Origin: Candidatus Dojkabacteria bacterium UBA2259
Lineage (GTDB): Bacteria > Patescibacteriota > Dojkabacteria > SC72
Direction of reading: 5' to 3'
DNA: 64,000 nucleotides
Assembly (NCBI GenBank): GCA_002347605.1
Contig: DDXN01000001.1
Span: 9,701-73,700, forward strand
A program made the translations under genes and the position numbers. Below the pieces are notes generated by a model. That model searched no databases. It was not told the DNA's origin and saw only the letters and a program-made list of their open reading frames with translations. This document shows, in pieces, positions 9,418 through 64,000 of this stretch (its first letter is position 1; each line of letters starts with the position of its first letter).

Positions 9418-12400
9418 TTAAATTTTAATCTCTTCTAGATCCTTTATCTCTGTTAGCGCAGCACTCGCTCCAGATGGAATCCTTCTTCCAATTATTACAT
9501 TCTCTTTCATACCTCGAAGGAAGTCTGTCTTACCAAGAATTGCACTATTAGTTAAAACTCTTACCTGCTCTTGGAATGACATAGCCGAAAGGAAGCTTTC
9601 TGTATACAGTGCAGAGGCTTTAATACCAAGTAATTTTGGAACTATTCTAGCTTTTCTCTGTCCCTTATCTACAAGTATTCTGTTTTTTACATCTGATACA
9701 AACCTATTTACCATTGATCCAACCAAATACTCGGTATCCCCTGAGCTCATAACTTTTCCTAATCTTGCCATCTGTCTAATAATTACCTCAATATGAAGGT
9801 CATCAATTGCAACAGCTTGCTCATTGAAAACTTTCTGTACTTGATCAAGTATGTACTTTTGTGCAACCTGAAGACCAGCGACCTCTGCTAACTTCTTAGG
9901 GTCAACTGCACCACCTACAAGTTGTGTACCTGCCTCAATCTCTTGGCCATCATGAACCAAAATCTCAATATTTGGTAAAACAGATACGCTCTCTTCTGCT
10001 TTAACTGAGCCCGAAAGAGTTAATACTCCTCCCTCTATTTTCACATCACCCTCAAACGGTGCCTGTTTTTCCATCCCCTCAGAATCAATATATATAGCTT
10101 GACCACCCTTTACCTTAGCTCCATCAGTAACCAATACACTCTTAGCATCAGAAACAACTTCTTCTTTTATCATATCTCTCTTTCCTACAATTGTTATTGT
10201 TGCGGAATCATCTTCTGCCCTATCTATATGTACCTTTCCACTAATACTGGATATTTCGGCTTCTGCTTTTGGAGACCTTGCTTCAAACAACTCTTCAATC
10301 CTAGGCAATCCTTGTGTTATATCTGTGGTCTGAACACCTCCTTTATGGAATGTCTGCATAGTCATTTGGGTACCAGGTTCACCAATGGATTGAGCAGCAA
10401 TTACTCCAACAGCTTTACCCATTTCTATCTCTTCACCATTTTCCAGATTAAGACCGTAACACTTCTTACACATTCCTAAGGGTGATTTACATAGAATTGG
10501 TGTTCTAACAGATACCTCTTCAATTCCCTCATTGTTTATTTTTTCTGAAAGCTCTCTTGTAATCTGTTCGTTCTTTTTGATTATGACATTTCCTTTGGAA
10601 TCTTTTAAATCCTTTGCAACTACTCTTCCAAACAATCTTTTGTCAAATGGCATTCTTCTATCATCACTTCTTCTAATTGGGAATCCGTCTCCTTCATATC
10701 CACAATCGTCAACCCTAATTATTACATCATGTGCAACATCGACTAATTTTCTAGTTAAATAGCCTGAAGAAGAAGTCCTTAAAGATCTATCAGCAATACC
10801 TTTTCTTCCACCATTTGCTGAAACAAAGTATTCAAATGCATTAAGCCCATCTCTATAGTTTCCCTTAATTGGAAGTGGGACCCAATTTCCTCTAGAATCC
10901 CTAACTACACCTTTAATTGTTAATACCTGTCTTGCCTGAATCTTTCCACCATTTGCCCTTGATTCAACCATTTCATATACAGGATTATTCTTGTCCAATG
11001 TCTTCCATGCTTCATCTGCTAAATCAGAAGCAAAGTCATTCCACATCTCTGTAGAAAGATTAATCTTCTCTTTCTCAGTAATCAGTCCTTGAAGATAGTT
11101 TTCCTGGAGTTGAATATCCTTCTCTTCCATCTCTTTAATCTGAAGTTTTACATCAAAATCTACCTTACAATCTTCAGTACCAAATGAGAAACCAAGGTTA
11201 GTAGCAAATTTAAATCCCATTTCTTTGAGATTGTCTAAAAGCTCAACTACTACTTCTAAAGGATATTTATCCTTTATGCCTTCAACAATATGTGAGATTG
11301 TTTCTCCACTAACTCTTTCGTTAACAAATGGGTATCCTTGTGGCATGATACTGTTGAAAATACATCTCCCAACAGAAGTACTTACTACTTCTTCACCGAT
11401 TTTAACAAGTATCTCCTCACTTATACTAATAATCTCTCTTTCATATGCTTTTATTGCTAAATCAACTGAACCAAAGATTCTTGGTTTTTTACTCTCGTTT
11501 TTGTCAGTCATTAGGTAGAAACCAATTAACATATCTTTTGCTGGGGTAGCTAATACCTCGCCATTAGATATATTAACAATATTTCTAGATGCCATAATAT
11601 CTCTTTTAGCCTCTTCTAATGCCTCTTGGGTTAGAAGTACATGAACAGACATTTGATCTCCATCGAAGTCGGCATTGAAAGCTTTACATACTAATGGGTG
11701 TAACCTAATAGCTTCTCCCTCAACTAGCTTAGGATAGAAGGCTTGAATACTATATTTGTGTAGTGTAGGCGCACGATTCAGCAACACAGGTTTCCCATCT
11801 ATGACCTTTTCTAAGATATCCCATATCATATCCTCTTCCTCTTCTATCATGTCTTTTGCAACCCTAACATTTGGTGCAAACTCTTTATCTAATAGCTCGT
11901 GTATTACAAAGGGCTTGAACATCTCTAGTGCAACAGACTTTGGGATACCACACTGGTCTAATTTCAAGCTAGGGTCTCCAACAATAACGGCACGGCCAGA
12001 GTAGTCAACTCTTTTACCTAGAAGATTCTTTCTAAAGATTCCCTTTTTACCTCTTAAATCGTCCGTAAGTGATTGGTATGGTAATCTCTTACTGTTCATC
12101 ATAGCCTTAGATGGCCTATGAGAGTTATCTATTACAGCATCCACAGACTCTTGGAGCATTCTTTTCTCATTTCTTAATATTACATCTGGTGCTCCTATCT
12201 CAATCAATCTAGCTAACCTATTATTTCTGTTAATTACCCTCCTGTACAAATCATTTAAATCAGAAGTAGCAAATTTACCCCCTGAGAGAGGAATAATTGG
12301 CCTTAACTCTGGTGGAAGTACTGGCAGAATCTCAATAACCATCCAACTTGGGTCAATACCATTTTGATTAAAACCTTCTAGATACTGTATTCTCCTTATT

Positions 12401-45357: not shown

Positions 45358-46830
45358 ATGGATAAAATTGATTTTGAACAGTATGCCCAAAATATTCCAA
45401 AACCAGAGATAAAAGAGGTAGACGCATCTACCCTTGATATAGATGTGGATGATGTATGGAAGATTGTTAATGAGAATTTAAGGATGGTGTTAGATAGGGT
45501 AGAGTATGATTCTTGGTTTTCAGGTGCATATCTTGAAAGGATTCAAAACGGTGTAGCTACAATTTCATGTCCAAACGAATTCAAAAGGTCTGCAATATTA
45601 AAAGATTACAATAAGTTTTTGCAAAGCTGTTTAACTAAAGCTACTGGTCAGAATTTGCAGTTAGAGGTTGTTGTAAAGGCTGGTGAATCACAAAGACCTA
45701 AAGAGAGATACAGGTTTGTTACTCAAACGGGTAACCCAGTAGTTGACCTATTTACAAAAATGGAGGGAGACAAAAAGAAGTATGAAGATGCTGTTAAAAA
45801 GGCTAGATTAAATCCAAGATATACCTTTAAGACCTTTGTCGTGGGAAGTAACAATAGACTAGCAGAGGCTGTTGCCCAATCTGTTGTTTCAGATATGGAG
45901 AATGAAAGTATTGCTAAATCATATAACCCAGTTTTTTACTATGGTAATACCGGCGTAGGTAAAACTCACTTAATGCAAGCAATCGGGAATGAAGTATTAA
46001 GAGTAAATCCTACCAGAAGTGTAGTATATGTTTCAATTGAACAGTTCCTTAATGAAATGATAGAGGCTATTCGAACTAAAAAGAATGAAGATTTTAGAAC
46101 AAAGTACAGGGATGTGGACCTTTTAATAATTGACGATATTCAGTTTGTAGAAACATACCCTAAAACCCAAGAGGAGCTCTTCCACACCTTTAATACCTTG
46201 TACCAAGCGAATAAACAGATTATTCTAGCTTCAGATAGACCTCCAAGAGATATCAAAAATATTACAGATAGATTAAGAACAAGGTTCGAAGGAGGTATGG
46301 TGTGTGATATCCAGGCTCCAGAGTATGAGACAAGGTTGGCCATTCTAAAACAGATTATGCTTGAAAAAGGAGTAACCGTTCCAGATGCATTCTTGGATTT
46401 AATAGCTAAAAACATTGTAAATAGTGTAAGAGAGTTAGAGGGTGCTCTTAACAAAGTAATTACTCTCACAAAGCTTGGTCAGGTTCCATCTTACGAAGAG
46501 GTTGCTAGAATTTTACAAGTTGATATTGAGAGTAAAAGAAGAAGAGTTACTCCTGAAAAGGTTCTAGAAGTTGTATGCTCTGTCTTTGATGTATCAATAC
46601 GTTCAATTAAAAGTCCTAAAAAGACAGCAAGTTTAGCAACACCAAGACAGGTTGTTATGTTTCTTCTTAGAACGGAGTTAGAAACTTCATTGCTAGATGC
46701 GGCGAAGTGTGTTGGAAGAAAGGATCACACAACTGTGCTTCATGCTTGTGCTGCGATTCCAAAAAAAATAAAGTCAGATTCTACATTGTCAGAAAAAATT
46801 GAAAAGTGTAGGGGAGATCTCTTCTATTAG
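45358..46830 (+). CDS. dnaA: Chromosomal replication initiator DnaA
   Basis: Walker A GNTGVGKTHL, Walker B LLIIDDIQF, the sensor region and the C-terminal DNA-binding domain. Confidence 0.95.
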   Translation: MDKIDFEQYAQNIPKPEIKEVDASTLDIDVDDVWKIVNENLRMVLDRVEYDSWFSGAYLERIQNGVATISCPNEFKRSAILKDYNKFLQSCLTKATGQNLQLEVVVKAGESQRPKERYRFVTQTGNPVVDLFTKMEGDKKKYEDAVKKARLNPRYTFKTFVVGSNNRLAEAVAQSVVSDMENESIAKSYNPVFYYGNTGVGKTHLMQAIGNEVLRVNPTRSVVYVSIEQFLNEMIEAIRTKKNEDFRTKYRDVDLLIIDDIQFVETYPKTQEELFHTFNTLYQANKQIILASDRPPRDIKNITDRLRTRFEGGMVCDIQAPEYETRLAILKQIMLEKGVTVPDAFLDLIAKNIVNSVRELEGALNKVITLTKLGQVPSYEEVARILQVDIESKRRRVTPEKVLEVVCSVFDVSIRSIKSPKKTASLATPRQVVMFLLRTELETSLLDAAKCVGRKDHTTVLHACAAIPKKIKSDSTLSEKIEKCRGDLFY

Positions 46831-47248: not shown

Positions 47249-48376
47249 ATGAAAATGCAATTTACATGTAACCAAGATACCTTAGCGAAATACCTAGAGA
47301 TTATTAGCAGGGTAGTAAGTAGTAAACCAGGATTACCAATCCTTAATAATGTTCAGTTTGAAACAAGTAAGGGTAAGCTTCTAATGACTGCAACTGACTT
47401 AGAAATTGGGATTAGTACATGGATAGGTGCAGATGTTAAATCTGAGGGAAAAACTACAGTACCTGCTAAGCAGTTGACCGAGTTTGTTACATCTATTCCT
47501 TCTGATACAGTAGATGCTACTTTAGATAATCAAACTTTTAATATATCTACTACAAATAACTCTGCGAATTTCAATACCATGTCTGCAGAGGAATTTCCCT
47601 CAGTTGCTACTGTTACAGGGAAAAAACCTCTATTTAAGATATCTAAAGAGGATCTTTCTAAGGCTGTAAATAGAGTTGCATTTGCATCTGCCACAGATGA
47701 TATTAAACCTGTTTTAACAGGAGTACTTCTTGAAGTTTTAGGAGAGAGTGTTTCTTTTGTAGGTACAGATGGTTTGAGATTATCAAGACAGATTATCAAG
47801 TTAGACTCTAGTGCTGAAAAAGATGTAAACATATTAGTACCTGTTAAAGCCCTATTTGAGTTAGCACATATTGTTTCAGAAGTAGGGGATGATGATGATG
47901 TAGAAGTATATTTAATAGAGGACAGAAATCAGATTCTGTTTAGGTATAGCGATGTAGATTTGGTATCAAGATTAATTGATGGGCAGTTTCCAGAGTACAG
48001 GCAGATTATTCCTACTGGATACAAAACAATGTGTAAGGTATCTAGATCGGATTTTCTTAACTCTCTAAAAGTAACCAATATTATAGCCAAAAGTGTGCTT
48101 GGGAATAAATTGATATTGGATATTGACCCCTCTAATGACAAGATAGTTCTTTCTGCTACACAAACAGATTTGGGTAGCAACAAGAGCACATTTGAAGGGA
48201 AGATAGAAGGGGATAGTTTAAAAATAGCTTTTAGTTCGAGATTACTTGCAGATATTTTAAATCACTTAGATTCAGAAGATATATCTTTTGAATGTTGCGA
48301 AACTGTTAAACCAGGAGTGTTTAAAATTATTGATGATCCTGATTTTGTTCATCTAGTAATGCCGATGATGCTTTAA
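47249..48376 (+). CDS. dnaN: DNA polymerase III beta sliding clamp
   Basis: 375 aa with three-domain clamp pattern. N-terminus MKMQFTCNQDTLAKYLEIISRVVSSK...LMTATDLEIGIS. Confidence 0.9.
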   Translation: MKMQFTCNQDTLAKYLEIISRVVSSKPGLPILNNVQFETSKGKLLMTATDLEIGISTWIGADVKSEGKTTVPAKQLTEFVTSIPSDTVDATLDNQTFNISTTNNSANFNTMSAEEFPSVATVTGKKPLFKISKEDLSKAVNRVAFASATDDIKPVLTGVLLEVLGESVSFVGTDGLRLSRQIIKLDSSAEKDVNILVPVKALFELAHIVSEVGDDDDVEVYLIEDRNQILFRYSDVDLVSRLIDGQFPEYRQIIPTGYKTMCKVSRSDFLNSLKVTNIIAKSVLGNKLILDIDPSNDKIVLSATQTDLGSNKSTFEGKIEGDSLKIAFSSRLLADILNHLDSEDISFECCETVKPGVFKIIDDPDFVHLVMPMML

Positions 48377-50218: not shown

Positions 50219-50312
50219 GGAGAGGTGCTAGAGTGGTCGAATAGGGCACACTCGAAATGTGCTGTTCGGGATATTTCCTGAACCGTGGGTTCAAATCCCA
50301 CCCTCTCCGCCA
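50219..50312 (+). tRNA. tRNA-Ser (anticodon CGA), long variable arm, CCA encoded
   Basis: Acceptor GGAGAGG/CCTCTCC, anticodon stem GCACA/TGTGC with loop CTCGAAA, a ~21-nt variable arm, and T-arm GTGGGTTCAAATCCCAC, then GCCA. Confidence 0.8.
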
Positions 50313-55773: not shown

Positions 55774-55828
55774 TATAATAGTAAGATTTGTGTTATTATT
55801 GTATATTAAATTATACAAATTTAACACA

Positions 55829-56137
55829 AATATGAACAAAGTAAAAACATACAAAAGTATTACAAAACAGATAACATTTCCACAAAAGTTGATGGACAGA
55901 GTTGAGAGTAAGGCTGAAAGTTTAGGGTATTCTCTTCCTGCATATGTTAGATATGTACTTACCAAGGAGATTGAAAAACAATCATATCCAGTACTTGATG
56001 GTGTAGTGATAGATGAAGAGATGGTCAATAGTCTTAAAAAGGGTATAAAAGAACACAAGGAAGGGAAATCAAAAGAGCTCAAAAGTGTAAAAGATATTGA
56101 AATGTTCTGTAGGGGGATTTTGAAAGATGAGAATTAA
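55829..56137 (+). CDS. DinJ/RelB-family antitoxin
   Basis: ITFPQKLMDRVESKAESLGYSLPAYVRYVL resembles the DinJ N-terminal ribbon-helix-helix (IDEDLKNQAADVLAGMGLTISDLVRITL). The ORF track starts at 55790 (MLLLYIK...), but the ATG at 55829 (MNKVKTYK...) is the more likely start. Overlaps the toxin gene by 11 nt. Confidence 0.6.
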   Translation, partial: NMNKVKTYKSITKQITFPQKLMDRVESKAESLGYSLPAYVRYVLTKEIEKQSYPVLDGVVIDEEMVNSLKKGIKEHKEGKSKELKSVKDIEMFCRGILKDEN

Positions 56138-56420
56138 ATATCCCTTTAAATATACCCAAGACTTCTATTATAATTTCAAAAGGATTGCGAAAAAGGATAG
56201 GCGTTTAATAATTAGTATAGAAAAAGTTTTAAAGACACTATCTATAGAACCTTTTTCAAAATCTCTCAGAACTCATTATGTGGAAGTATCTTCTCTAGGA
56301 AAGGTATATAGCTCAAGAGTAAATGGAGATATCCGAATCTTATGGATAATTGATAATCAAGGGACCATTCTTATTCTAAGAGTCGGTAGTCACTCTGGTA
56401 GTTCAAAGGTATATAGATAA
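56127..56420 (+). CDS. RelE/YafQ-family mRNA interferase toxin
   Basis: C-terminus GDIRILWIIDNQGTILILRVGSHSGSSKVY parallels the RelE YRLVYQVIDEKVVVFVISVGKRERSEVY. 97 aa. Confidence 0.7.
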   Translation: MRIKYPFKYTQDFYYNFKRIAKKDRRLIISIEKVLKTLSIEPFSKSLRTHYVEVSSLGKVYSSRVNGDIRILWIIDNQGTILILRVGSHSGSSKVYR

Positions 56421-56451: not shown

Positions 56452-56863
56452 GGGGACGTTAGGCTTTCGACAGAAGTATATAGGTGCTGTTGTCACAAAT
56501 CGTTTTTTAGTTCGTAAAACTAAAACACAGATAAGTGTAGAAAACAAACTTAACGCTTTTGCAAGTAAGCTAAGGGCTGCATTTATTGCACCTTCTTATG
56601 CTTACAATTTTGCATAAGTTTGATCAATTAATTTTGGTCAATGTCTACCTTTCTTATCCCTAGTTAGGGGAGATAGACAGTCGTTACTAGGGTATAGTAT
56701 GTATTCTTTGTCAGTAGAGGATCCATAGTGAATATAATTACTGAGTAGGTTATACTTTTTGTTAGATTTTTTAGTGTAATCTAGCTATATAAATCTAAAT
56801 ATATTTGTAAATGACATTGTACTTAGCTTTTGGACGTGGGTTCAAATCCCACCGTCTCCACCA
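56452..56863 (+). ncRNA. ssrA: tmRNA (ssrA)
   Basis: 5' GGGGACGUUAGGCUUUCGACAG... and 3' ...GGACGUGGGUUCAAAUCCCACCGUCUCCACCA closely resemble Bacillus-type tmRNA ends (from memory). The acceptor 5' GGGGACG pairs with 3' CGUCUCC, including the G3:U70 alanine identity pair. A T-arm and encoded CCA are present. The tag ORF is not assigned with confidence. Confidence 0.75.
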
Positions 56864-58412
56864 TATCAGGTTCGTTATTGGTAATTGCTTCAAAAAGGGT
56901 TATTGGAAGAGAATAGTTAGGGGTTCGATAACCCTCTATTTTGTCATACTCTAAATTCGTATCAAAGATAAAAGAAAAGAACTTCTGTTTTTGATATACA
57001 TCGTAGTTTTCCCATACAGTATAAGGTTTCTGTAAAACCTCAAGAACTTCTTTAGAAGAGGTTCGATAAGGAATAGAGTAATCAACATCTGTCTTTATTC
57101 TGTTTTCCAGTATCTCTACCTCTTCTCCATATTTCTGAATTTGTTTTTCGTATTGTTTTAACACGGTTGAATTAGTGGTTCTAATTGCGAAAGAGGCGTA
57201 TTTCTCTATTTCGTGTTCTATTTTCTCCTTGTTTCCTATGTCTTCTTCTCTTGCGTTTTGGAGGTTACCTATCTCTATCTTCCAAGCATCTTCAAAGATA
57301 GCAAGGGATAGGTTTATTAGGTCCTCTGACGCCCTGATTTGACCTAGAAGGGCACTAAAACCTGCATGTATGTCTTCTGCCCTAATGCTTTTCCCATACA
57401 TCTCACACTCCTTGTTGGCACATTTGTAATAAGGGTGTAGTTTCCCTGTTTTACTTCTAGAAGATGCACCTGTCAGTTTCTTCCCGCAACAAGCACAGTT
57501 AATTAATCCTCTGAGGAAAAAATCCTCTCTTATATCTTTTCTTACAAAGGAAGGTGTTTTACCTTCTAAGATTTTCTGATTTCTTTCAAAGGTCTTAATA
57601 TCTATAATACCCTTATGATGTCCCTCCCTTCTAATTACTTCCCATTTTGGAAACTCTATATAACCTGCATAAAAGGGGTTCTTAAGAAGGTTTGTAAAGG
57701 TTACAATCCCTTTGTTGGCGTGTTGGTTGTTGCTTATAACACCTTTCTTTTGGAGATATCTTACAGCATCAATTTTATTTTCGAATCTTCTATTAGCAAA
57801 ACCCTCTAACGCCCCTTTAATAAACTCTGCATTCCTTGTAGGGATATCTATAGTCCCATGTATAGGGTCTTTTATTTTCTTGTATCCTAGAGGCGCACAG
57901 AACGCCCAATAACCGTTTCTAAGTCGTGCTTGTTGTTTCTGTATCACTTGTCTTTGGTTTTGTTGTCTTTCTAGTTGATTATGTGCCGCCTGCAATGTCT
58001 CAAAGTAGATTCCCTCAGGAGTATCATCAAAATCGTAATTCAAACACAATAGAATAACATCTCTAATTTTTAAGGCACTTCGTAATTTAATATGACCTTC
58101 GGTATCTCTTGCAAACCTCTTAAGGTCATCAAATACAACAACAAAACTTTTATGCGGATTTTTATCTATATACTCTAGCATCTCTCTCATTGCGGGTCTT
58201 TTCATAAAATCTCCTCCCCCTGTAAAACTGTCAAAGAAACTCCTTTCATAAGGGATGTTTTCTTCTCTTAATTTGGATAAGCACCTTTCTTCTTGACTCT
58301 CTAATCCATGTCCTTCCGTTCTCTGTTTTCTTGCAGATACCCTTGCATATATTAATCCAACTTTGTTTTTATAAAGGTTGTTATTGCGAAACGAACCCAT
58401 TTCACTATCCAT
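56823..58412 (-). CDS. Large serine recombinase (phage-type integrase)
   Basis: N-terminal resolvase catalytic domain GLIYARVSARKQRTEGHGLESQEE with the catalytic Ser in YARVS. Also a recombinase domain, a zinc ribbon CACCGKKL...YYKCANKEC and a C-terminal coiled-coil. The last ~13 codons overlap the ssrA 3' end. Confidence 0.85.
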   Translation of the reverse strand: MDSEMGSFRNNNLYKNKVGLIYARVSARKQRTEGHGLESQEERCLSKLREENIPYERSFFDSFTGGGDFMKRPAMREMLEYIDKNPHKSFVVVFDDLKRFARDTEGHIKLRSALKIRDVILLCLNYDFDDTPEGIYFETLQAAHNQLERQQNQRQVIQKQQARLRNGYWAFCAPLGYKKIKDPIHGTIDIPTRNAEFIKGALEGFANRRFENKIDAVRYLQKKGVISNNQHANKGIVTFTNLLKNPFYAGYIEFPKWEVIRREGHHKGIIDIKTFERNQKILEGKTPSFVRKDIREDFFLRGLINCACCGKKLTGASSRSKTGKLHPYYKCANKECEMYGKSIRAEDIHAGFSALLGQIRASEDLINLSLAIFEDAWKIEIGNLQNAREEDIGNKEKIEHEIEKYASFAIRTTNSTVLKQYEKQIQKYGEEVEILENRIKTDVDYSIPYRTSSKEVLEVLQKPYTVWENYDVYQKQKFFSFIFDTNLEYDKIEGYRTPNYSLPITLFEAITNNEPDMVETVGFEPTSKS

Positions 58413-58887
58413 TTCTTTTTAATTCTAAGAGTTTATTTATTGCTTTATACATGCGATTCTCTATCGAGGTCTCATATCTTGCATAATAAGAGGATAAATA
58501 CTCCATGTGAGATGTTGTAACTACTGGTTTATAACCGTCCCTTTCTTTAAAAGTATCTAAATCAAGTAGTTTTGATACTATTGTTGGGTCGATGGCGGTC
58601 TTCATTAGTTCTGCTTCTGCTTTTGCAACTCTTAAAAGTTTTATATAGGCAACTGAGATTCTTTCTATCAAAATCTCTTCTAGAGTGTTTTTAGGTGGGA
58701 AATCTTGAGATAGTGAATTATAAAAATTAAGGAAATCAAACTCCTCATACTCAGATACACTTTTTTTTAAGATACCATGCTTAACTGCATTGAATCTTGA
58801 TACCTCTTTTCCTTCTTCGGTTTTGACTCCTCCCAATTTACTGTTTTCCCTGTTCGCCTCTAACTGTTTTTCTGTTATGTTCTTCAT
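58405..58887 (-). CDS. Hypothetical protein (island cargo)
   Basis: 160-aa ORF overlapping the recombinase start by 8 nt. No motif. Confidence 0.4.
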   Translation of the reverse strand: MKNITEKQLEANRENSKLGGVKTEEGKEVSRFNAVKHGILKKSVSEYEEFDFLNFYNSLSQDFPPKNTLEEILIERISVAYIKLLRVAKAEAELMKTAIDPTIVSKLLDLDTFKERDGYKPVVTTSHMEYLSSYYARYETSIENRMYKAINKLLELKRNG

Positions 58888-59053
58888 AAATCTTAATGTT
58901 TTTATTTATTATCTCTTTTGCTAAGGAATATATGTAATATCTGATTTTTTCAATGTCATCATTGCTTATATCCCTAGTGGGAAGGTATTCCCGACATTTT
59001 TCTACACTTAACATTTTATGTAATGGATAATCTGGTTCTAGGGTTTCTAGCAA
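58838..59053 (-). CDS. Hypothetical small protein
   Basis: 71-aa ORF. Weak support. Confidence 0.25.
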   Translation of the reverse strand: MLETLEPDYPLHKMLSVEKCREYLPTRDISNDDIEKIRYYIYSLAKEIINKNIKIYEEHNRKTVRGEQGKQ

Positions 59054-59092
59054 CTCAGATTAATAAGTAAGGGTTTCGATTTGTTCGACAAC

Positions 59093-59902
59093 CTATTTCT
59101 TATCAATGCGTTCTAAAAGAACAACCTTGCCGTTTTCTTGCTTAATTAATAGTTCCTTTCTTCCCTCTTCCTTGAGTGCTTTAGATATATACTCTTGGAC
59201 ATTCTTAGGATTTTGAGTTTTCTTAACATAATCAATTCTGTTAATCTTTTTATCTTGCACGGATATTCTAACCTCTCCTAAATTCTCTTCTGTCATTATA
59301 GAAAAGAGTAAATCAGTTTCCTTCTCGTTTGGACTTATTACTAAGTTTGTATTGTAACTAAGTTCTGGTTTTTTAACACTTCTCGAGAATATATCATTTA
59401 ATCTTATTACGATATGAGGGGAGGGAAGGGGACTAATTAATTGGGAATTTATATATTCTGTATCCAAGCAAAGGTCTGCCTCTCCTTTGGGAGTAATGAC
59501 CAGAAGGACATTGTCTTTAATAAACATTCTTCCAATAAACAATTCAAAGTAGAGGGTGTCCTCCTTTCCATCTTCTCTTCTATGGAAAATACATTTTTTG
59601 ATATTGTTAATCTTATCAAGGGGGAACCCGATTTTTCTTAGATCTCCTACAACACCTATCCAGAGAATATCAATTAAACTGAATTTCCTCCAACCAGAGT
59701 TTCTTCCTTTCTGTTTTAGTAATATATTTTTCTCTTCCCAATGATTGATGATTCTGTAACTTTGAGATGTAGAGGACATAGACACTTTTCTTTTTCTAAT
59801 AATCTCTCTTACGGGAGAAAACTTTTCACCTTGATAATCCCCTAACCAGAAGTCAAACCAATCGCTGTGATGTATTGTAAAAGGTAAGATGTTTATTCCC
59901 AT
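59093..59902 (-). CDS. MerR-family-like HTH protein (candidate element regulator / recombination directionality factor)
   Basis: The segment ILLKQKGRNSGWRKFSLIDILWIGVVGDLRKIGFPLDKI fits the MerR wing/helix pattern (ESGYRLYS..DL..L..I..LR..GFSL.EI). The remaining ~180 aa are unassigned. Confidence 0.45.
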   Translation of the reverse strand: MGINILPFTIHHSDWFDFWLGDYQGEKFSPVREIIRKRKVSMSSTSQSYRIINHWEEKNILLKQKGRNSGWRKFSLIDILWIGVVGDLRKIGFPLDKINNIKKCIFHRREDGKEDTLYFELFIGRMFIKDNVLLVITPKGEADLCLDTEYINSQLISPLPSPHIVIRLNDIFSRSVKKPELSYNTNLVISPNEKETDLLFSIMTEENLGEVRISVQDKKINRIDYVKKTQNPKNVQEYISKALKEEGRKELLIKQENGKVVLLERIDKK

Positions 59903-60004
59903 ATATAAATTATACGCCAGTGTATAATTTAGTCAAGGGGATTGTTTAATACCCATCTTTGGTTATTCAAGCGATGTGGGATATAATAAATAACAAAAAG
60001 ATAT

Positions 60005-62131
60005 ATGGACTCCACTTACAATAACAAAAAATTGACTTTATCAGAGATGCAGCAAATTGCAAAAGAAAGAGGAGGGGAGTGTCTGTCAGAAGAGTATGTA
60101 AATGTTATAACCCCATTAGAGTGGAAGTGTTCAGAAGGGCACAAATGGAAATCAACGCCACATAATATTAAAAGAGGAAGATGGTGTCCTGTTTGCGGTA
60201 GATACAAGAAAAGAAAGTATAAAACCAAATACTCTATTGTTGATATGAGGGAAATTGCAGAAGAAAGAGGAGGAAAGTGCTTATCTAAAGAATTTCTTAA
60301 TAGTAACACGCATTTAGTATGGGAGTGTAAGAGGGGTCATCGATGGAACGCCCGTCCAACACAAGTAATTAGTGGTTCATGGTGTCCCTTTTGTGTGTAT
60401 GAGGATAGGAAAAGAACCATAGAAGAAATGCAGCAAATTGCAAAAGAGAGAGGAGGGAAGTGCTTATCTACAGAGTATATAAACATTGATACAAAATTAC
60501 TTTGGGAGTGTTCGAAGGGTCATAAATGGGAAGCAATACCCTACAATATTGTTTCTGGGAGAAATTGGTGTCCTGTTTGTAGGAAAAAATATATTGCTAC
60601 TGATAATCCTTCGGGCTACACAATAAAAGACATGCAGAACATTGCTACTCAGAAAGGTGGAAAGTGTTTGTCAAAGAAATATCTGGGAAGTCATTATAAA
60701 TTGACATGGAGATGCAAAGTAGGTCACGAATGGGAATCTCGTCCAACAACTATACTTAGTGGTGGGTGGTGTCCTATATGTTCAATAGAGAAGAGGGCGA
60801 ATTCCTCAAGAAAGTATTCAATAAAAGATTTTAAAATAATTGCTGAAGAGAGGCATGGGGAATGTTTATCAACAGAGTTTACAAACAGTGATTTAAAATT
60901 AAGGTGGAGATGTAACAAAGGGCACGAATGGGAAGCAAGTGGGCGGGCAATTATTAACGGACAATGGTGTCCAATGTGTAGAACATATAGGAGAGAAGAG
61001 ATTTGCCGTAATATTATTGAGTATTATTTTGAAAAGCAATTCCCTAAGAAAAGACCTAAATGGCTAATCAATTCCAAAGGAAATATTATGGAATTGGATG
61101 GATACAACGAAGAGTTAGGGGTAGCATTTGAACACCAAGGACTTCAGCACTATGAGGAAACAGAATTTTTCAATAGGGAGAAAGATTTAGCAACTCAGAA
61201 AAAACTTGATAGGGAAAAACGGGAAAAATGCTTGGAGAAGGAGGTCTTTTTATTAGAAATCCCTTATTTAATACCTGTTGAAGAGTTGGAGAAATACATC
61301 TTGAATCTTTGTGACGAGAATTCTCTTGCAAGAAAAATAAAGAGGGAAATGACAAGGGATGAGATTTTAAATGTTTATAGTCCTAAGGAGACGGAAGAAC
61401 TAAGGGAGATAGCAAAGATGAGAGGTGGGAAACTGTTGTCTAAGGTTTATGTCACTGCCACGATACCCCTTGTCTGGAGGTGCAGCAAGGGGCACGAATG
61501 GAAGGCAAATCCCCACATGGTGAGAAGAGGAACCTGGTGCCCTATATGTGGCAATGATGTCCGTAGGGGCAACATAGAGGAGTGTATACAGTTAGCGAGG
61601 AAAATGGGTGGGGAATGTCTGTCTACAGAATATTTGAATAGTTACAAAAAGATGAAATGGAAGTGCAAAGAAGGTCATATTTGGTTTGCATCTTTTGGTC
61701 AATTGAAAAATGAAAACACATGGTGTTCAATATGCAGTAATAAAAAGAGGAGACTTGGCTTAGAGAGGATGAAAGAACTTGCGAGAGAACGGGGGGGAGA
61801 GTGTTTATCAACAGAATATTTTGGGATTGGGGAGAAATTAAAGTGGAGATGCAAATATGGTCACGAGTGGAATGTTGCACCAAAACATATTGTGGCAGAT
61901 GACTCATGGTGTCCTGTATGTGCCAGAGAGGGGAGGAAAAAAACAATAGAAGAGATGCAACAAATTGCAAAAGATAGGGGAGGAAAGTGTTTATCAAAAA
62001 AGTATGTAGGCGTAAATGCACATTTACTTTGGAAATGTAAACAAGGTCATAAGTGGAAAGCAACACCAAGCAATGTTTTGCGAGGAACGTGGTGTCCTGC
62101 ATGTGCTTTGACGCAACGGAAGAGGGGATAA
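60005..62131 (+). CDS. Multi-zinc-ribbon repeat protein (9 x ~62-aa GHxW...WCPxC modules) with a central Vsr/DUF559-like putative endonuclease domain
   Basis: Nine repeats of the form [ST]IEEMQQIAKERGGKCLSxEYxNxxxKLxWxCxxGHxWxAxPxxIxxGxWCPVC; five lie N-terminal and four C-terminal to the core. The central ~130-aa region ...IMELDGYNEELGVAFEHQGLQHY...DREKREKCLEKEVFLLEIPY resembles the DUF559/very-short-patch-repair-like PD-(D/E)xK pattern (vDG..H...D..R..L...G..VlR). The repeat resembles the GHEW/CP probable zinc-ribbon family (recalled as DUF4379). Confidence 0.6.
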   Translation: MDSTYNNKKLTLSEMQQIAKERGGECLSEEYVNVITPLEWKCSEGHKWKSTPHNIKRGRWCPVCGRYKKRKYKTKYSIVDMREIAEERGGKCLSKEFLNSNTHLVWECKRGHRWNARPTQVISGSWCPFCVYEDRKRTIEEMQQIAKERGGKCLSTEYINIDTKLLWECSKGHKWEAIPYNIVSGRNWCPVCRKKYIATDNPSGYTIKDMQNIATQKGGKCLSKKYLGSHYKLTWRCKVGHEWESRPTTILSGGWCPICSIEKRANSSRKYSIKDFKIIAEERHGECLSTEFTNSDLKLRWRCNKGHEWEASGRAIINGQWCPMCRTYRREEICRNIIEYYFEKQFPKKRPKWLINSKGNIMELDGYNEELGVAFEHQGLQHYEETEFFNREKDLATQKKLDREKREKCLEKEVFLLEIPYLIPVEELEKYILNLCDENSLARKIKREMTRDEILNVYSPKETEELREIAKMRGGKLLSKVYVTATIPLVWRCSKGHEWKANPHMVRRGTWCPICGNDVRRGNIEECIQLARKMGGECLSTEYLNSYKKMKWKCKEGHIWFASFGQLKNENTWCSICSNKKRRLGLERMKELARERGGECLSTEYFGIGEKLKWRCKYGHEWNVAPKHIVADDSWCPVCAREGRKKTIEEMQQIAKDRGGKCLSKKYVGVNAHLLWKCKQGHKWKATPSNVLRGTWCPACALTQRKRG
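60029..62120. repeat. Intragenic DNA repeats encoding the zinc-ribbon modules
   Basis: For example, agagatgcagcaaattgcaaaagaaagaggagg at about 60043, agaaatgcagcaaattgcaaaagagagaggagg at about 60424, and agagatgcaacaaattgcaaaagatagggg at about 61950. Confidence 0.55.
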
Positions 62132-62210
62132 TTAAACCATCTTTATCCTAAAAGAAATATGTAACCGAGATTTTGAGAACTTTAATTTCTCAAGGTATCT
62201 TTATATAATC

Positions 62211-62924
62211 GTGGTAATGCAAGGAAAGAAGTTTAAAGTTAAAAGCGAAAGCGGTGATATTCAAGAAATTCTGAGTTTTGTCCTTGTTATTTTTAATGAA
62301 GTTTTACCAATTGCTGGGGAAGAAGAGTGTATTGTATTTAATGATTCCAGTGCAGAATGTCCTATGCTTATTACTAACAAGAAATCCTTAGAAATCAGAT
62401 TAAACGTAGAGGAAGAATCTAAGTGGAACCAAGTTATCTATCAAATGTCTCACGAAATAATGCATTATGCTCTACGGCAGAAAAGAGAAAAGAAGGGTGA
62501 GATATTGAGTTGGTTTGAGGAAACTCTTTGTGAAGCATTTTCTTTATATACTATGTCGATTGCAATGACAAAGTGGAAGATTTGTAGTTTCTATAAATTG
62601 AATAAGAACTATTATAAGTATATTGGAAGTTACTTTAATAAAGAGTTGAATAAAAAGGGTGACAAAATATCAGAATGTGTTACCCTTGATTGTTTAAGAG
62701 AGATAGATAAAGAAGCAGAAACCCATCGAGAATGGAGATACGACATTAGAAATGCGGTTTTTGAATTGTTTAAGGTGTATCCGAAGGGTATTGCAGAGAT
62801 TCTTGACTATTCAGAATACGTTGAAGAAGATATGTTAACGATCAACTTTTATAAGTGGGAGCAAAATAGCAGGTTCCCTCAATTTATAAAAAAACTAGCA
62901 CTAATACAACCAGAGGTTTGTTAA
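62211..62924 (+). CDS. Hypothetical protein with HExxH motif (possible zinc metallopeptidase, ImmA/IrrE-like?)
   Basis: MSHEIMHYAL contains HEIMH. No other motif is confirmed. Confidence 0.35.
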   Translation: MVMQGKKFKVKSESGDIQEILSFVLVIFNEVLPIAGEEECIVFNDSSAECPMLITNKKSLEIRLNVEEESKWNQVIYQMSHEIMHYALRQKREKKGEILSWFEETLCEAFSLYTMSIAMTKWKICSFYKLNKNYYKYIGSYFNKELNKKGDKISECVTLDCLREIDKEAETHREWRYDIRNAVFELFKVYPKGIAEILDYSEYVEEDMLTINFYKWEQNSRFPQFIKKLALIQPEVC

Positions 62925-62935
62925 TAATTACATAT

Positions 62936-63382
62936 TCAATTTCTCTGTCCTGGTTTCTTTTTCTCTTGGTTCTTCAAATTTTCCCATTTCTTTTGTTCCT
63001 CCAGTTCCAAGACAGGATCTATATACTCTTTCCCTAATAATTTCTTAATTCTTCTGTGAATTTCATCTATCTGAGTCCATAATCTTTGAACCTCGTTTAC
63101 ATGTCTCTCATATTCTTCATTGTCCGATACGTCCATAAGTTCACGTTCATAAACATTTTGACTCAATGCCTTAATGTATTCCTTCCAATCGTTAATAATT
63201 TCTGGAATTTTTGAATTATCAAATTTGTATCTCTCATAAAGTCGAGTAAAATTTTTACTACCACAGTCAAAGAATACTCTTGGATCAGTAAGGTGCTGTT
63301 TGAGATGGGAATTGTTAATCTGATTTAAAAGTTCAAATTCCATCTCTCTCACAGCATCATATTCATTGGAATAGTTATTCAT
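62936..63382 (-). CDS. Hypothetical protein
   Basis: 148-aa charged, helical ORF. No motif. Confidence 0.4.
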   Translation of the reverse strand: MNNYSNEYDAVREMEFELLNQINNSHLKQHLTDPRVFFDCGSKNFTRLYERYKFDNSKIPEIINDWKEYIKALSQNVYERELMDVSDNEEYERHVNEVQRLWTQIDEIHRRIKKLLGKEYIDPVLELEEQKKWENLKNQEKKKPGQRN

Positions 63383-63536
63383 ATTACTAAATACTAAGAT
63401 ATTATCTTAAGTAGCAGAATTATAAATAAACTTTAATAATTTGTCCAATAGGTCCGTATTGTAAGTTTTTATTCTCCCAATTATGAGAGTGTTAGAGATA
63501 TTATTGTTGTATATATTCAATACCAATGTAGTGTAT

Positions 63537-63770
63537 CTATTCATACAGATTATTCTTGTCATTTAGGATATAATTAAGGGCAGGGGGATTGTATTTAAAG
63601 AATTCTGCCCATTGAAGAATAAAGGTTCTTAATGGGTTCGAACTTTTAACTACGATGTCCACCACTTTGATATTTGGGATATTAAGCTCGTTAACTATGC
63701 TGTAAGTAAGATACAATTCATTGGTTCGACATCCTTTATTTTGGAAATATTGAAATCCCTCTGGAAACAT
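63537..63770 (-). CDS. Hypothetical small protein
   Basis: 77-aa ORF. Weak support. Confidence 0.25.
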   Translation of the reverse strand: MFPEGFQYFQNKGCRTNELYLTYSIVNELNIPNIKVVDIVVKSSNPLRTFILQWAEFFKYNPPALNYILNDKNNLYE

Positions 63771-64000
63771 CTATTGTTGATTCAATGGTTCTCCACTCAA
63801 AATCTGGTCTGTTGCGTGGAGTTAGTATAATCCTCTATCTTGTTTTATGTAGTTTGTTTGCGATTGTTTTGCTAATATCTGAACTTAATTCTGTTATTAA
63901 AGCTGTCCTATTTATTCCATCATAGCTGTGGACATTTGTTGTTTATCTCCTTTAGATATTTGCTAAGATTAATACAATAATACCTAACACCATAAAAGGT

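Follow-up and report, generated by a model that had tools for sequence, protein, structure and literature searches.

Positions 56864-63664 of the DNA analyzed here very probably constitute a 6,801-bp integrative element, which was inserted at the CCA end of the transfer-messenger RNA (tmRNA) gene ssrA by its own large serine integrase (LSI). The DNA is a stretch of 64,000 nucleotides (nt) from Candidatus Dojkabacteria bacterium UBA2259 (GenBank assembly GCA_002347605.1, contig DDXN01000001.1, positions 9,701 to 73,700 of the forward strand). It is referred to as the window, and all positions are counted from its first letter. Comparison of the junctions further indicates that the attachment site of the element, attP, lies inside the integrase gene, and that insertion swaps the last 40 residues of the integrase for 11 residues encoded by antisense ssrA. 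This location of attP would explain why the integrase open reading frame (ORF) overlaps ssrA. An original prediction for this DNA had proposed an integrative element at ssrA with a large serine recombinase, and this core claim held, since the recombinase is full length and empty sites were found in relatives.

The ssrA gene was detected at 56452-56863 (plus strand) by ARAGORN and by Rfam RF00023 (109 bits, model positions 1-374 of 374). It is complete and includes an encoded CCA at 56861-56863. The integrase gene in its integrated form encodes 529 amino acids (aa) at 56823-58412 on the minus strand and matches Pfam families Resolvase (PF00239), Recombinase (PF07508), and Zn_ribbon_recom (PF13408). 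In agreement with the prediction that the ssrA 3' end is contained in a 529-aa serine recombinase gene on the other strand, the two genes overlap by 41 nt (56823-56863). The C-terminal residues of the protein (..MVETVGFEPTSKS, followed by the stop) correspond to the ssrA acceptor and T-arm translated in the antisense direction, with residues 519-529 (ETVGFEPTSKS) read from the antisense strand of ssrA.

Comparison of the two junctions revealed TCCACCA (TGGTGGA in the integrase sense) as the only block common to both, located at 56857-56863 in attL and at 63658-63664 in attR. In the integrase sense, attL reads ..CCTGATA TGGTGGA GACGGTGGGATTTGAACCC, and attR reads ..ATATCAAAG TGGTGGA CATCGTAGTTAAAAGTTCGAACCC. 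At the attR end, an open frame of 77 codons (63537-63770, minus strand) contains ..VVDIVVKSSNPLRTFILQWAEFFKYNPP, resembling the C termini of the minority homologs without tRNA-like peptide ends (proteins P0018 and P0022). Within this frame, 63537-63659 (minus strand) corresponds to the displaced 3' end of the integrase gene, consisting of 40 codons (DIVVKSSNPLRTFILQWAEFFKYNPPALNYILNDKNNLYE) and a stop; it was assigned by in-frame rejoining and by its match to a profile hidden Markov model (HMM) of such tails (E 1.8e-12). The first ~9 tail codons form the P arm of attP. Indeed, when the element sides of attR and attL were joined in silico, an uninterrupted, in-frame integrase ORF of 558 aa was obtained. 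It aligned to the last residue (555/555) of the integrase of a related locus, L088, and to residue 552/561 of the integrase of another, L090. From the in-frame restoration of 558 aa and the 7-bp core, we therefore conclude that the element most likely measures 6,801 bp, with attP inside the integrase gene and the C terminus replaced. The predicted attB junction is ..CGTCTCCACCA joined to CTTTGATATTTGGG (in a longer form, CCCACCGTCTCCACCA joined to CTTTGATATTTGGGATATT), and the predicted attP junction is ..CCTGATATGGTGGA joined to CATCGTAGTTAAAAG (in the integrase sense, AACGAACCTGATATGGTGGA joined to CATCGTAGTTAAAAGTTCGAACCC).

A long direct repeat of ssrA was not present at the far end, where attR has the displaced integrase 3' end instead. 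In the window, the ssrA 3' 26-mer was matched (with 3 mismatches at most) at one further place only, a tRNA-Ser gene. The displaced t(m)RNA 3' fragment and tyrosine integrase that define Islander-class islands were not found here, and the repeat is only 7 bp long. The original prediction had placed attR beyond the window and expected it to be marked by the 3' end of ssrA as a direct repeat. The site was located inside the window, at 63658-63664, and of the expected repeat only the 7-bp core TCCACCA was found, not a long copy.

Relatives without the element were identified by a scan for the ssrA 3' 26-mer, which returned 15 loci. Two of them, L091 and L094, have empty sites: they share the identical 26-mer, a Peptidase_A24 (prepilin peptidase) gene ends 22-35 nt past ssrA, and the genes that come next (124-aa, 158-aa, pilin, 154-aa, and T2SSF) are those that lie to the right of the element in this genome. 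Thus, related genomes lacking the insertion, with an uninterrupted ssrA and conserved flank, do exist at the level of related species; a comparison with such genomes had been proposed as a check. In L093, L100, and L105, 0.7-0.9 kb separates ssrA from those pilus genes, L104 carries a different 3.6-kb insert at ssrA, and in L095, L096, L098, and L103 the site is occupied by integrases with 81-88% identity. The occupied arrangement itself was reproduced in the independent assemblies L002, L113, and L114 at 99.9-100% identity. Datasets containing this population are JGI 3300000032, ENA ERZ27315046 and ERZ27315071, and SRA ERR1950817.

Comparison with L001, L113, L091, and L094 identified the last ~340 nt of the window (63665-64000) as host DNA to the right of the element, including the B' side of attB. 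From 63952 onwards, this host DNA contains the 3'-terminal part of the Peptidase_A24 gene (minus strand). The L001 and L113 contigs reach past the window, and in them the 148-aa ORF that is the last of the element is followed by Peptidase_A24, pilin, and T2SSF (type IV pilus) genes. All genes from ssrA to the window end had been considered noncore, with a MerR-like, a zinc-ribbon/nuclease-like, and an HExxH protein among them. These three descriptions were upheld, but the element stops at 63664 and host DNA follows.

The two arms next to the core were then compared across the family. The B arm consensus (tmRNA side, from the core outwards) is GTG followed by GAGatGgggGGAATCGAACCccCG, also given as GTG followed by GAGatGgggGGAATCGAACC, and the P arm consensus (tail side, from the core outwards) is GTG followed by GACATagtggGtAAAAcATtGAACCgcc, also given as GTG followed by GACATagtggGtAAAAcATtGAACC. 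The motif AT(C/T)GAACC is located at +12 in the B arm and at +17 in the P arm. In line with this, the identity between the arms was highest when P was shifted by +5 (0.40, versus ~0.25 at other shifts). For LI integrase, Rutherford et al. described a zinc-ribbon-domain motif 5 bp nearer to the center in attB than in attP (PMC3783163). The sites of the window family show the same features, a small shared core and an outer zinc-ribbon-domain motif 5 bp closer in attB, with the motif clear in one arm per site. The outer motif of the B arm is the T-loop and T-stem of the tRNA or tmRNA, and the 3'-terminal ~25 nt of ssrA are the B arm of attB. Since the 5-bp offset of AT(C/T)GAACC matches the LI integrase spacing, the P arm looks like a mimic of the tmRNA T-arm at attP spacing. 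A T-arm-like sequence in the B' flank of the window (GGGATATTAAGC versus GGGATTTGAACC, symmetric about TG) was given no weight, because the empty-site relatives and the family consensus lack such a likeness.

The arrangement recurs widely. A protein search returned 1461 homologs; among the best 120, whose endings were examined, 106 end in tRNA- or tmRNA-antisense peptides (e.g., ..DVEMGGIEPPC) and 8 carry a native tail. At least 574 relatives were found in a scan of GTDB species-representative genomes, and 80 loci were kept, most of them from metagenome-assembled genomes (MAGs) labeled Patescibacteria. On the strand opposite to the integrase, the target was a tmRNA gene in at least 34 of the 80 loci (28 by ARAGORN and 6 more by Rfam). 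Opposite to the integrase 3' end, tRNA-Ala genes were found in 16 of the 80 loci, tRNA-Leu genes in 2, and tRNA-Thr and tRNA-Met genes in 1 each. The acceptor arm of tmRNA is tRNA-Ala-like, which would explain the ..TCCA(C) core shared by the tmRNA and tRNA-Ala targets.

The tail profile HMM, built from 14 tails and applied with a cutoff of E<1e-3, gave ~47 matches, all on the integrase strand and none on the other. Nearly all were located upstream of the integrase gene, and the remaining ones were still attached to intact genes (L042, L066, and L088-L090). In 37 of the 80 loci, the attR tail rejoins the integrase in frame, yielding element sizes of 3.3-11 kb (median, ~6.2 kb). Each of 34 related loci had a GTGGA-containing core of 5-12 nt in common between its attL and attR. 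In all 37 displaced tails, the frame stays open for 29-46 codons, with a mode of 34, versus a median open length of 15 codons at random positions, and their consensus is ..K(T/S)(L/S)NxLKxYLSRFWxYYQSSPxLQxALxNA. The intactness and fixed length of the tails therefore imply that the free-form gene is under selection and that the elements cycle or did so recently. Furthermore, contiguous attP forms were found in metagenomes (L088-L090 and L117-L120).

Between attR and the integrase gene, the cargo of the mapped elements is variable, with only 3 clusters among 253 ORFs present in more than 3 loci. The conserved accessory genes are all on the integrase strand, and the remaining content is variable cargo. 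At many loci, a hairpin with a T-run was seen by eye on the host side of attR and was read as the displaced native terminator of the tmRNA gene.

The integrase itself has the features of an LSI. The PF00239 match (E 2.4e-18) spans residues 21-168, the protein matches the PHROG 95 integrase family (E 8e-59), and the match to NCBIfam CcrB (E 1.7e-22) is below the curated cutoff. Residues Y22, R24, V25, and S26 (YARVS) and the zinc-ribbon cysteines C306, C309, C331, and C336 are invariant across 44 homologs. Since Ser26 is a catalytic-type serine and the recombinase is full length, a truncated relic with a mutated serine, which had been raised as a way for the prediction to fail, was ruled out. 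No database record was found for the exact 529-aa sequence; the recorded protein, P0001 (525 aa), uses an alternative start at 58400.

The structure was viewed through an AlphaFold model of P0018, which is a tail-bearing homolog and not the window protein (mean predicted local distance difference test [pLDDT] score, 83). The model consists of the catalytic domain, helix E, the recombinase domain, a zinc ribbon that carries a long coiled coil, and a small C-terminal domain; the long paired helices (369-417 and 421-446) follow the ribbon. A linker of low confidence (518-532) covers the residues encoded by the core of attP and by the first part of the P arm; the terminal tail helix (530-547) has a pLDDT of ~60-74. 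The best PDB matches of the model in Foldseek were the SPbeta, Bxb1, phiC31, and LI integrases (E 1e-16 to 1e-10), with a sequence identity of 14-17% in the structural alignments. The serine catalytic domain, and the recombinase domain followed by a four-Cys zinc ribbon with an inserted coiled coil, are those of an LSI.

These data suggest the following course of events. In the free form, attP would be located within the 3' end of the integrase gene, with codons ~505-518 as the P' arm, the crossover within TGGTGGA (codons 517-519), and the first ~9 codons of the 40-residue C-terminal tail as the P arm. The attB site would be composed of the last ~25 nt of ssrA (the 3' strand of the acceptor and the T-arm) and the DNA just downstream. 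To insert the element, the integrase would have recombined attP with attB at the CCA end. Because the whole ssrA gene is retained, the mature tmRNA would be unaffected and its sequence intact, and ssrA would be cut off from its native downstream DNA. The integrase gene would be split: at attL it would read into antisense ssrA, acquire 11 host-encoded residues, and end at 529 aa, and the 40-codon tail would stay behind at attR, lacking a start. By excision, the 558-aa gene would be put together again. Such a step would need a directionality factor, for which the 58-aa and the 160-aa proteins of the element are candidates. The element may still be active, with directionality supplied by a conserved small gene.

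How much the exchange of the C terminus matters for the enzyme is a separate question. There is about an even chance that the structure is as described and that the swap has no function, i.e., that attP overlaps a dispensable gene end in a compact element and that both forms of the protein act alike. In the P0018 model, the swap occurs after all canonical LSI domains, in a region comprising only the low-confidence linker and the single terminal helix. The replacement peptides of relatives vary widely in sequence and length, with the ORFs still intact. Moreover, part of the tail conservation (K-T/S-S/L-N, encoded by AAAACATYGAAC) could reflect a constraint on the P arm DNA and not on the protein. 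However, the tail is conserved far beyond the ~25 bp of an att arm (..LKxYLSRFWxYYQSSPxLQxALxNA), and its length is kept at ~34 aa (29-46) across integrases that are 40-55% identical, none being interrupted before 29 codons. Both the conservation past the att arm and the tight tail length speak for selection acting, in the free form, on a tail that is translated and functional. We tentatively propose that the conserved tail matters for the free-form enzyme, and that its loss on integration would change activity or directionality, as reported for the tyrosine integrase of phage Mx8 (PMC6070905).

A stronger version of this proposal, which we regard as doubtful, is that the swap is a built-in switch, with the 558-aa form biased towards integration and the 529-aa form altered, so that no separate regulator would be needed for the element to tell whether it is integrated. 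The conserved terminal helix of the 558-aa form would then be needed for integration or bias the reaction towards it, and the 529-aa form would be subject to antisense read-through that starts at the strong ssrA promoter. Read-through from ssrA antisense to the integrase gene is speculative.

Empty sites in close relatives, variable cargo (253 ORFs with 3 clusters in more than 3 loci), different tRNA genes targeted by family members, contiguous attP forms in metagenomes, and intact displaced tails in all mapped loci make it improbable that the recombinase is a fixed, domesticated host gene beside ssrA, a regulator or invertase that is no longer mobile. Such a gene would be consistent with the very wide occurrence of the integrase/tmRNA gene pairing in Patescibacteria and with searches of JGI and IMG/VR, in which no excision product was observed for this strain. 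Still less probable is a larger island or prophage that extends past the window end and has a longer ssrA 3' repeat at its far end. It is true that no housekeeping annotation was obtained anywhere in 56.9-63.4 kb, and that tyrosine-integrase islands and the Dehalococcoides ssrA islands end in repeats of at least 20 bp (PMC3146451). However, the displaced integrase tail and the core are located at 63537-63664, the DNA to the right is the conserved host neighbor of ssrA in empty-site relatives and runs into type IV pilus genes in L001 and L113, the tRNA-Ser gene is the only other match to the ssrA 3' 26-mer in the window, and PHROG families for structural, replication, and packaging proteins were not matched. 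Finally, an ORF-calling artefact with the true protein ending upstream of ssrA is hardly credible: although the last 11 codons are set by the tmRNA sequence and not by protein selection, there is no in-frame stop before 56823, homologs are conserved up to the core codons D-V-E/D, and in the rebuilt attP the frame runs on into the conserved tail.

The junctions, the in-frame restoration, the empty sites in related species, the recurrence in the family, and the LSI domains with their att spacing were thus read from sequence. Several observations weigh against integration by the integrase at an attP inside its own gene, or against its functional extension. A functional effect of the C-terminal swap is pure conjecture. 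The exact predicted attB junction had 0 matches in JGI metagenomes, an attP circle or an empty site of exactly this strain was not found, and a scan of IMG/VR for the attP pattern gave 3 matches, all spurious. The contigs with contiguous attP forms (L088-L090 and L117-L120) have no terminal overlaps and are fragments, not closed circles. The crossover was placed no more finely than within the 7-bp core. No clear dyad symmetry was seen in the P' and B' arms; for the A118 attB, little symmetry was reported (PMC3556126). None of the genes of the element could be assigned to a recombination directionality factor, to replication, or to transfer. Base composition and skew were uninformative as island markers and did not set the element apart: the comparison of 56.8-64 kb with the flanks, which had been proposed as a check, gave overlapping GC ranges (0.33-0.385 within the element versus 0.31-0.35 in the flanks) and did not discriminate either way. 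Lastly, the contig L003 (sample ERZ27315071) follows the window to the CCA and continues with GTTTTAAAATAG (12 nt, 11820-11831), where it ends. L001, from the same sample, matches the window at 99.99% identity over ssrA, the element, and the right flank, and to the left of window position 56419 (L001:11983-12669) it has a SpoU gene of ~75% identity and no toxin pair. The disagreement of L001 and L003 at this edge probably reflects an assembler crossover in the ssrA shared by two co-occurring species; alternatively, it may be real recombination.

The gene content is that of a small element. Upstream of the integrase gene and on the same strand are three conserved accessory genes. A 160-aa protein (58405-58887, minus strand), whose gene end overlaps the integrase start, belongs to cluster 2, found in 6 of 37 elements by BLASTP; it has a homolog in L090 and no Pfam, PHROG, PADLOC, or NCBIfam match. 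A conserved small protein of ~58 aa (58838-59014, minus strand; ORF open to 59053) belongs to cluster 0, the most widespread accessory gene. Of the 37 mapped elements, 27 encode such a protein of ~50-60 aa, in every case on the integrase strand, and L088 has a homolog of the small protein. It may be a directionality factor or a regulator. The first gene of the integrase-strand operon encodes a 269-aa MerR-like helix-turn-helix protein (59093-59902, minus strand; Pfam MerR_1, E 3.8e-6) of cluster 1, which is ~275 aa long in the family and was found by BLAST in 18 of 37 elements, with homologs in L088, L119, and L120. Upstream of it, a consensus scan detected a promoter-like site, TTGACT-16-TATAAT, with 11 of 12 matches (59909-59936, minus strand). 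A weak terminator-like hairpin is located at 56920-56935.

The putative cargo starts with a gene for a 708-aa DUF4379 protein (60005-62131, plus strand), a treble-clef zinc-ribbon-repeat protein with a nuclease-like core (Pfam DUF4379, E 9e-44, 8 stretches; CapR). It matches PHROG 559 and 681 (HNH endonuclease/endonuclease; phage HNH/homing-endonuclease families), and the DNA repeats D1-D9 are located within its gene. In the protein, ~8-11 diverged zinc-ribbon units of ~60 aa (WxCxxGHxW...WCPxC) flank the core at ~330-480. The other cargo genes encode a 237-aa protein with an HExxH motif (HEIMH; 62211-62924, plus strand) and a 148-aa protein (62936-63382, minus strand), both without a family match. 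Overall, Pfam, PHROGs, PADLOC, and NCBIfam revealed no usable function for the accessory genes and no replication, transfer, virion, or defense family at a meaningful score in the element proteins; according to Pfam, there is no second resolvase-domain gene.

A prophage or prophage remnant, which had been suggested for this region, did not find support. No PHROG structural, replication, or packaging family was matched, and both parts of the integrase gene, the main part and the displaced 3' end, are intact. We dropped this reading, as the element has a length of 6.8 kb, its PHROG matches are of integrase and endonuclease types only, and in IMG/VR (2.9 M contigs) only 4 integrase relatives were found, with 35-37% identity. 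Because of the lack of meaningful replication, transfer, virion, or defense matches and the 4 distant IMG/VR relatives, we call it a small integrative element without recognized transfer genes, not a prophage.

Some members of the family deviate from the common arrangement. In L033, two displaced-tail fragments (2966 and 3927) are located upstream of one integrase gene, which points to serial or nested insertion into one tmRNA gene. Contigs end inside the integrase match or less than 50 nt past it in 8 of 80 loci (L008, L017, L019, L058, L071, L074, L076, and L078) and within ~200 nt of it in L026 and L083. Such breaks fit mixtures of occupied and empty sites, or repeated att and tRNA sequences. 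In L035 (11530-11580) and L026 (11518-11540), the integrases end a few codons past the core and no tRNA gene is present; the downstream DNA of L035 has a TCGAAC motif at attP-type spacing. These ends may be mutated attP forms or integrations at non-tRNA sites.

Sister elements were also found to contain the orphan LOOT RNA (Rfam RF03000). With a covariance model built from 6 Rfam hits, 48 copies were detected in 43 of the 80 related loci; most are 0.4-2.7 kb upstream of the integrase gene, and they occur on either strand. Where attR was mapped, 22 of 23 copies are within the element, and 22 of the 37 mapped elements have one. Examples are L080:8426-8546(-), L023:6620-6742(-), L029:8645-8766(-), L031:8255-8376(+), and L024:7770-7899(+), and there are ~38 further loci. 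In the element of the window and in the empty-site loci, no LOOT RNA was detected, including weak matches in the window element. The LOOT RNA may be a functional RNA of this element family.

Around the element, dnaA (45358-46830) and dnaN (47249-48376) are located ~9.6 kb upstream of ssrA, in agreement with the predicted position ~10 kb from the oriC region. Between the SpoU methylase gene and ssrA, there is a gene for a ParE/YafQ-like toxin (56127-56420) and, upstream of it, one for a 115-aa partner (55790-56137). This pair is variable: it is missing in L091, L094, and L100 and present in L096, L098, L103, and L104. The tRNA-Ser(CGA) gene (50219-50312) has a 3' end with 2 mismatches to the ssrA 3' 26-mer (GGGTTCAAATCCCACCCTCTCCGCCA). 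It is not occupied by an element, and its core would be TCCGCCA, versus TCCACCA at ssrA. The tmRNA tag assigned by ARAGORN (56452-56617) has 26 residues, VENKLNAFASKLRAAFIAPSYAYNFA, and is unusually long; long tags ending in ..FA or ..LA were also found in tmRNAs of related Patescibacteria.

The closest precedent is provided by the ssrA-specific genomic islands of Dehalococcoides, which carry the serine integrase DsiB (McMurdie et al. 2011, PMC3146451). A serine integrase at ssrA, described as less common in the original prediction, is uncommon indeed, but these islands show that it is not without precedent. Like the window element, they encode a CcrB-type serine recombinase of ~540 aa on the reverse strand beside attL and combine an integrase-proximal module with variable cargo. 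They differ in that they are bounded by a direct repeat of 20 bp and that their insertion point was inferred to be in the T-loop (PMC3146451), whereas the window element has a 7-bp core at the CCA end. Their six-gene integration module includes a small serine recombinase, DsiA, and the window element has no DsiA-like gene. The host phylum is different, and relatives of the window element also use tRNA-Ala, tRNA-Leu, tRNA-Thr, and tRNA-Met genes. As described, the Dehalococcoides islands are also set apart by the location of attP inside the integrase ORF in the window element.

The LSIs of phages (Listeria A118/LI, Bxb1, phiC31, and SPbeta) have the same domain order and predicted fold as the window integrase, and also short att sites with a small shared core and the 5-bp motif offset between attB and attP. 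They mostly target protein-coding or intergenic sites, whereas the elements of the window family, which are 3-11 kb long and not phages, use sites whose outer B-arm motif is the T-loop and T-stem of a tRNA or tmRNA. We know of no phage LSI with attP inside its own coding sequence. An attP inside an integrase gene is a feature of tyrosine integrases such as those of the archaeal SSV1 type, a further parallel to the arrangement described here. To our knowledge, it was previously known only for tyrosine integrases (Mx8 and SSV1).

For the myxophage Mx8, attP is inside int, and integration provides the prophage int with a new 3' end and thus a new C terminus (PMC6070905). The window element shares with Mx8 the attP in the integrase coding sequence, a tRNA-type target, and the rewritten integrase 3' end. 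In silico, integration rewrites its integrase ORF and excision restores it, as in Mx8/SSV1-like elements, and the same was found for 37 related loci. However, Mx8 integrase is a tyrosine recombinase with a different att organization, and the window integrase has serine recombinase domains only. A change in activity or specificity of the Mx8 integrase was shown experimentally (PMC6070905), and the window element is known from sequence alone. The element would thus work like the Mx8/SSV1 class without being a member, as it lacks the tyrosine chemistry.

Two further groups of elements are found at such genes. The tycheposons of Prochlorococcus are small cargo carriers beside tRNA or tmRNA genes, and 27 of 937 use a large serine recombinase (bioRxiv 10.1101/2020.12.28.424599). 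They mostly have tyrosine integrases, often carry replication genes, and occur in a different host, and attP inside the integrase gene was not described for them. Islander-class islands (Williams 2002/2003) likewise target t(m)RNA 3' ends, have an adjacent integrase, and preserve target function, but they have a tyrosine integrase and a t(m)RNA 3' repeat of tens of base pairs, neither of which is present in the window element. In an incomplete literature search, no description was found of a serine-integrase/tmRNA element in the candidate phyla radiation (CPR), of the present Patescibacteria family, or of a serine integrase whose attP is part of its coding gene. The latter arrangement, with the C-terminal swap that integration brings about, thus appears to be undescribed.

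Mobile elements mapped with base-pair precision are very few in Patescibacteria (CPR), and exact ends are given here for one. This element leads to a family of which species-representative genomes contain at least 574 members, and in which the orphan LOOT RNA gains a genomic context. For annotation, integrase ORFs with endings of the ..VEMGGIEPP type flag an integrated copy, and MAG contigs often break at such sites. The target, the acceptor end and T-arm of tmRNA and tRNA-Ala, is nearly universal, and such integrases could serve the engineering of uncultivated and nonmodel bacteria. Finally, the arrangement makes it testable whether the directionality of a serine integrase can be set by a change in its own C terminus.

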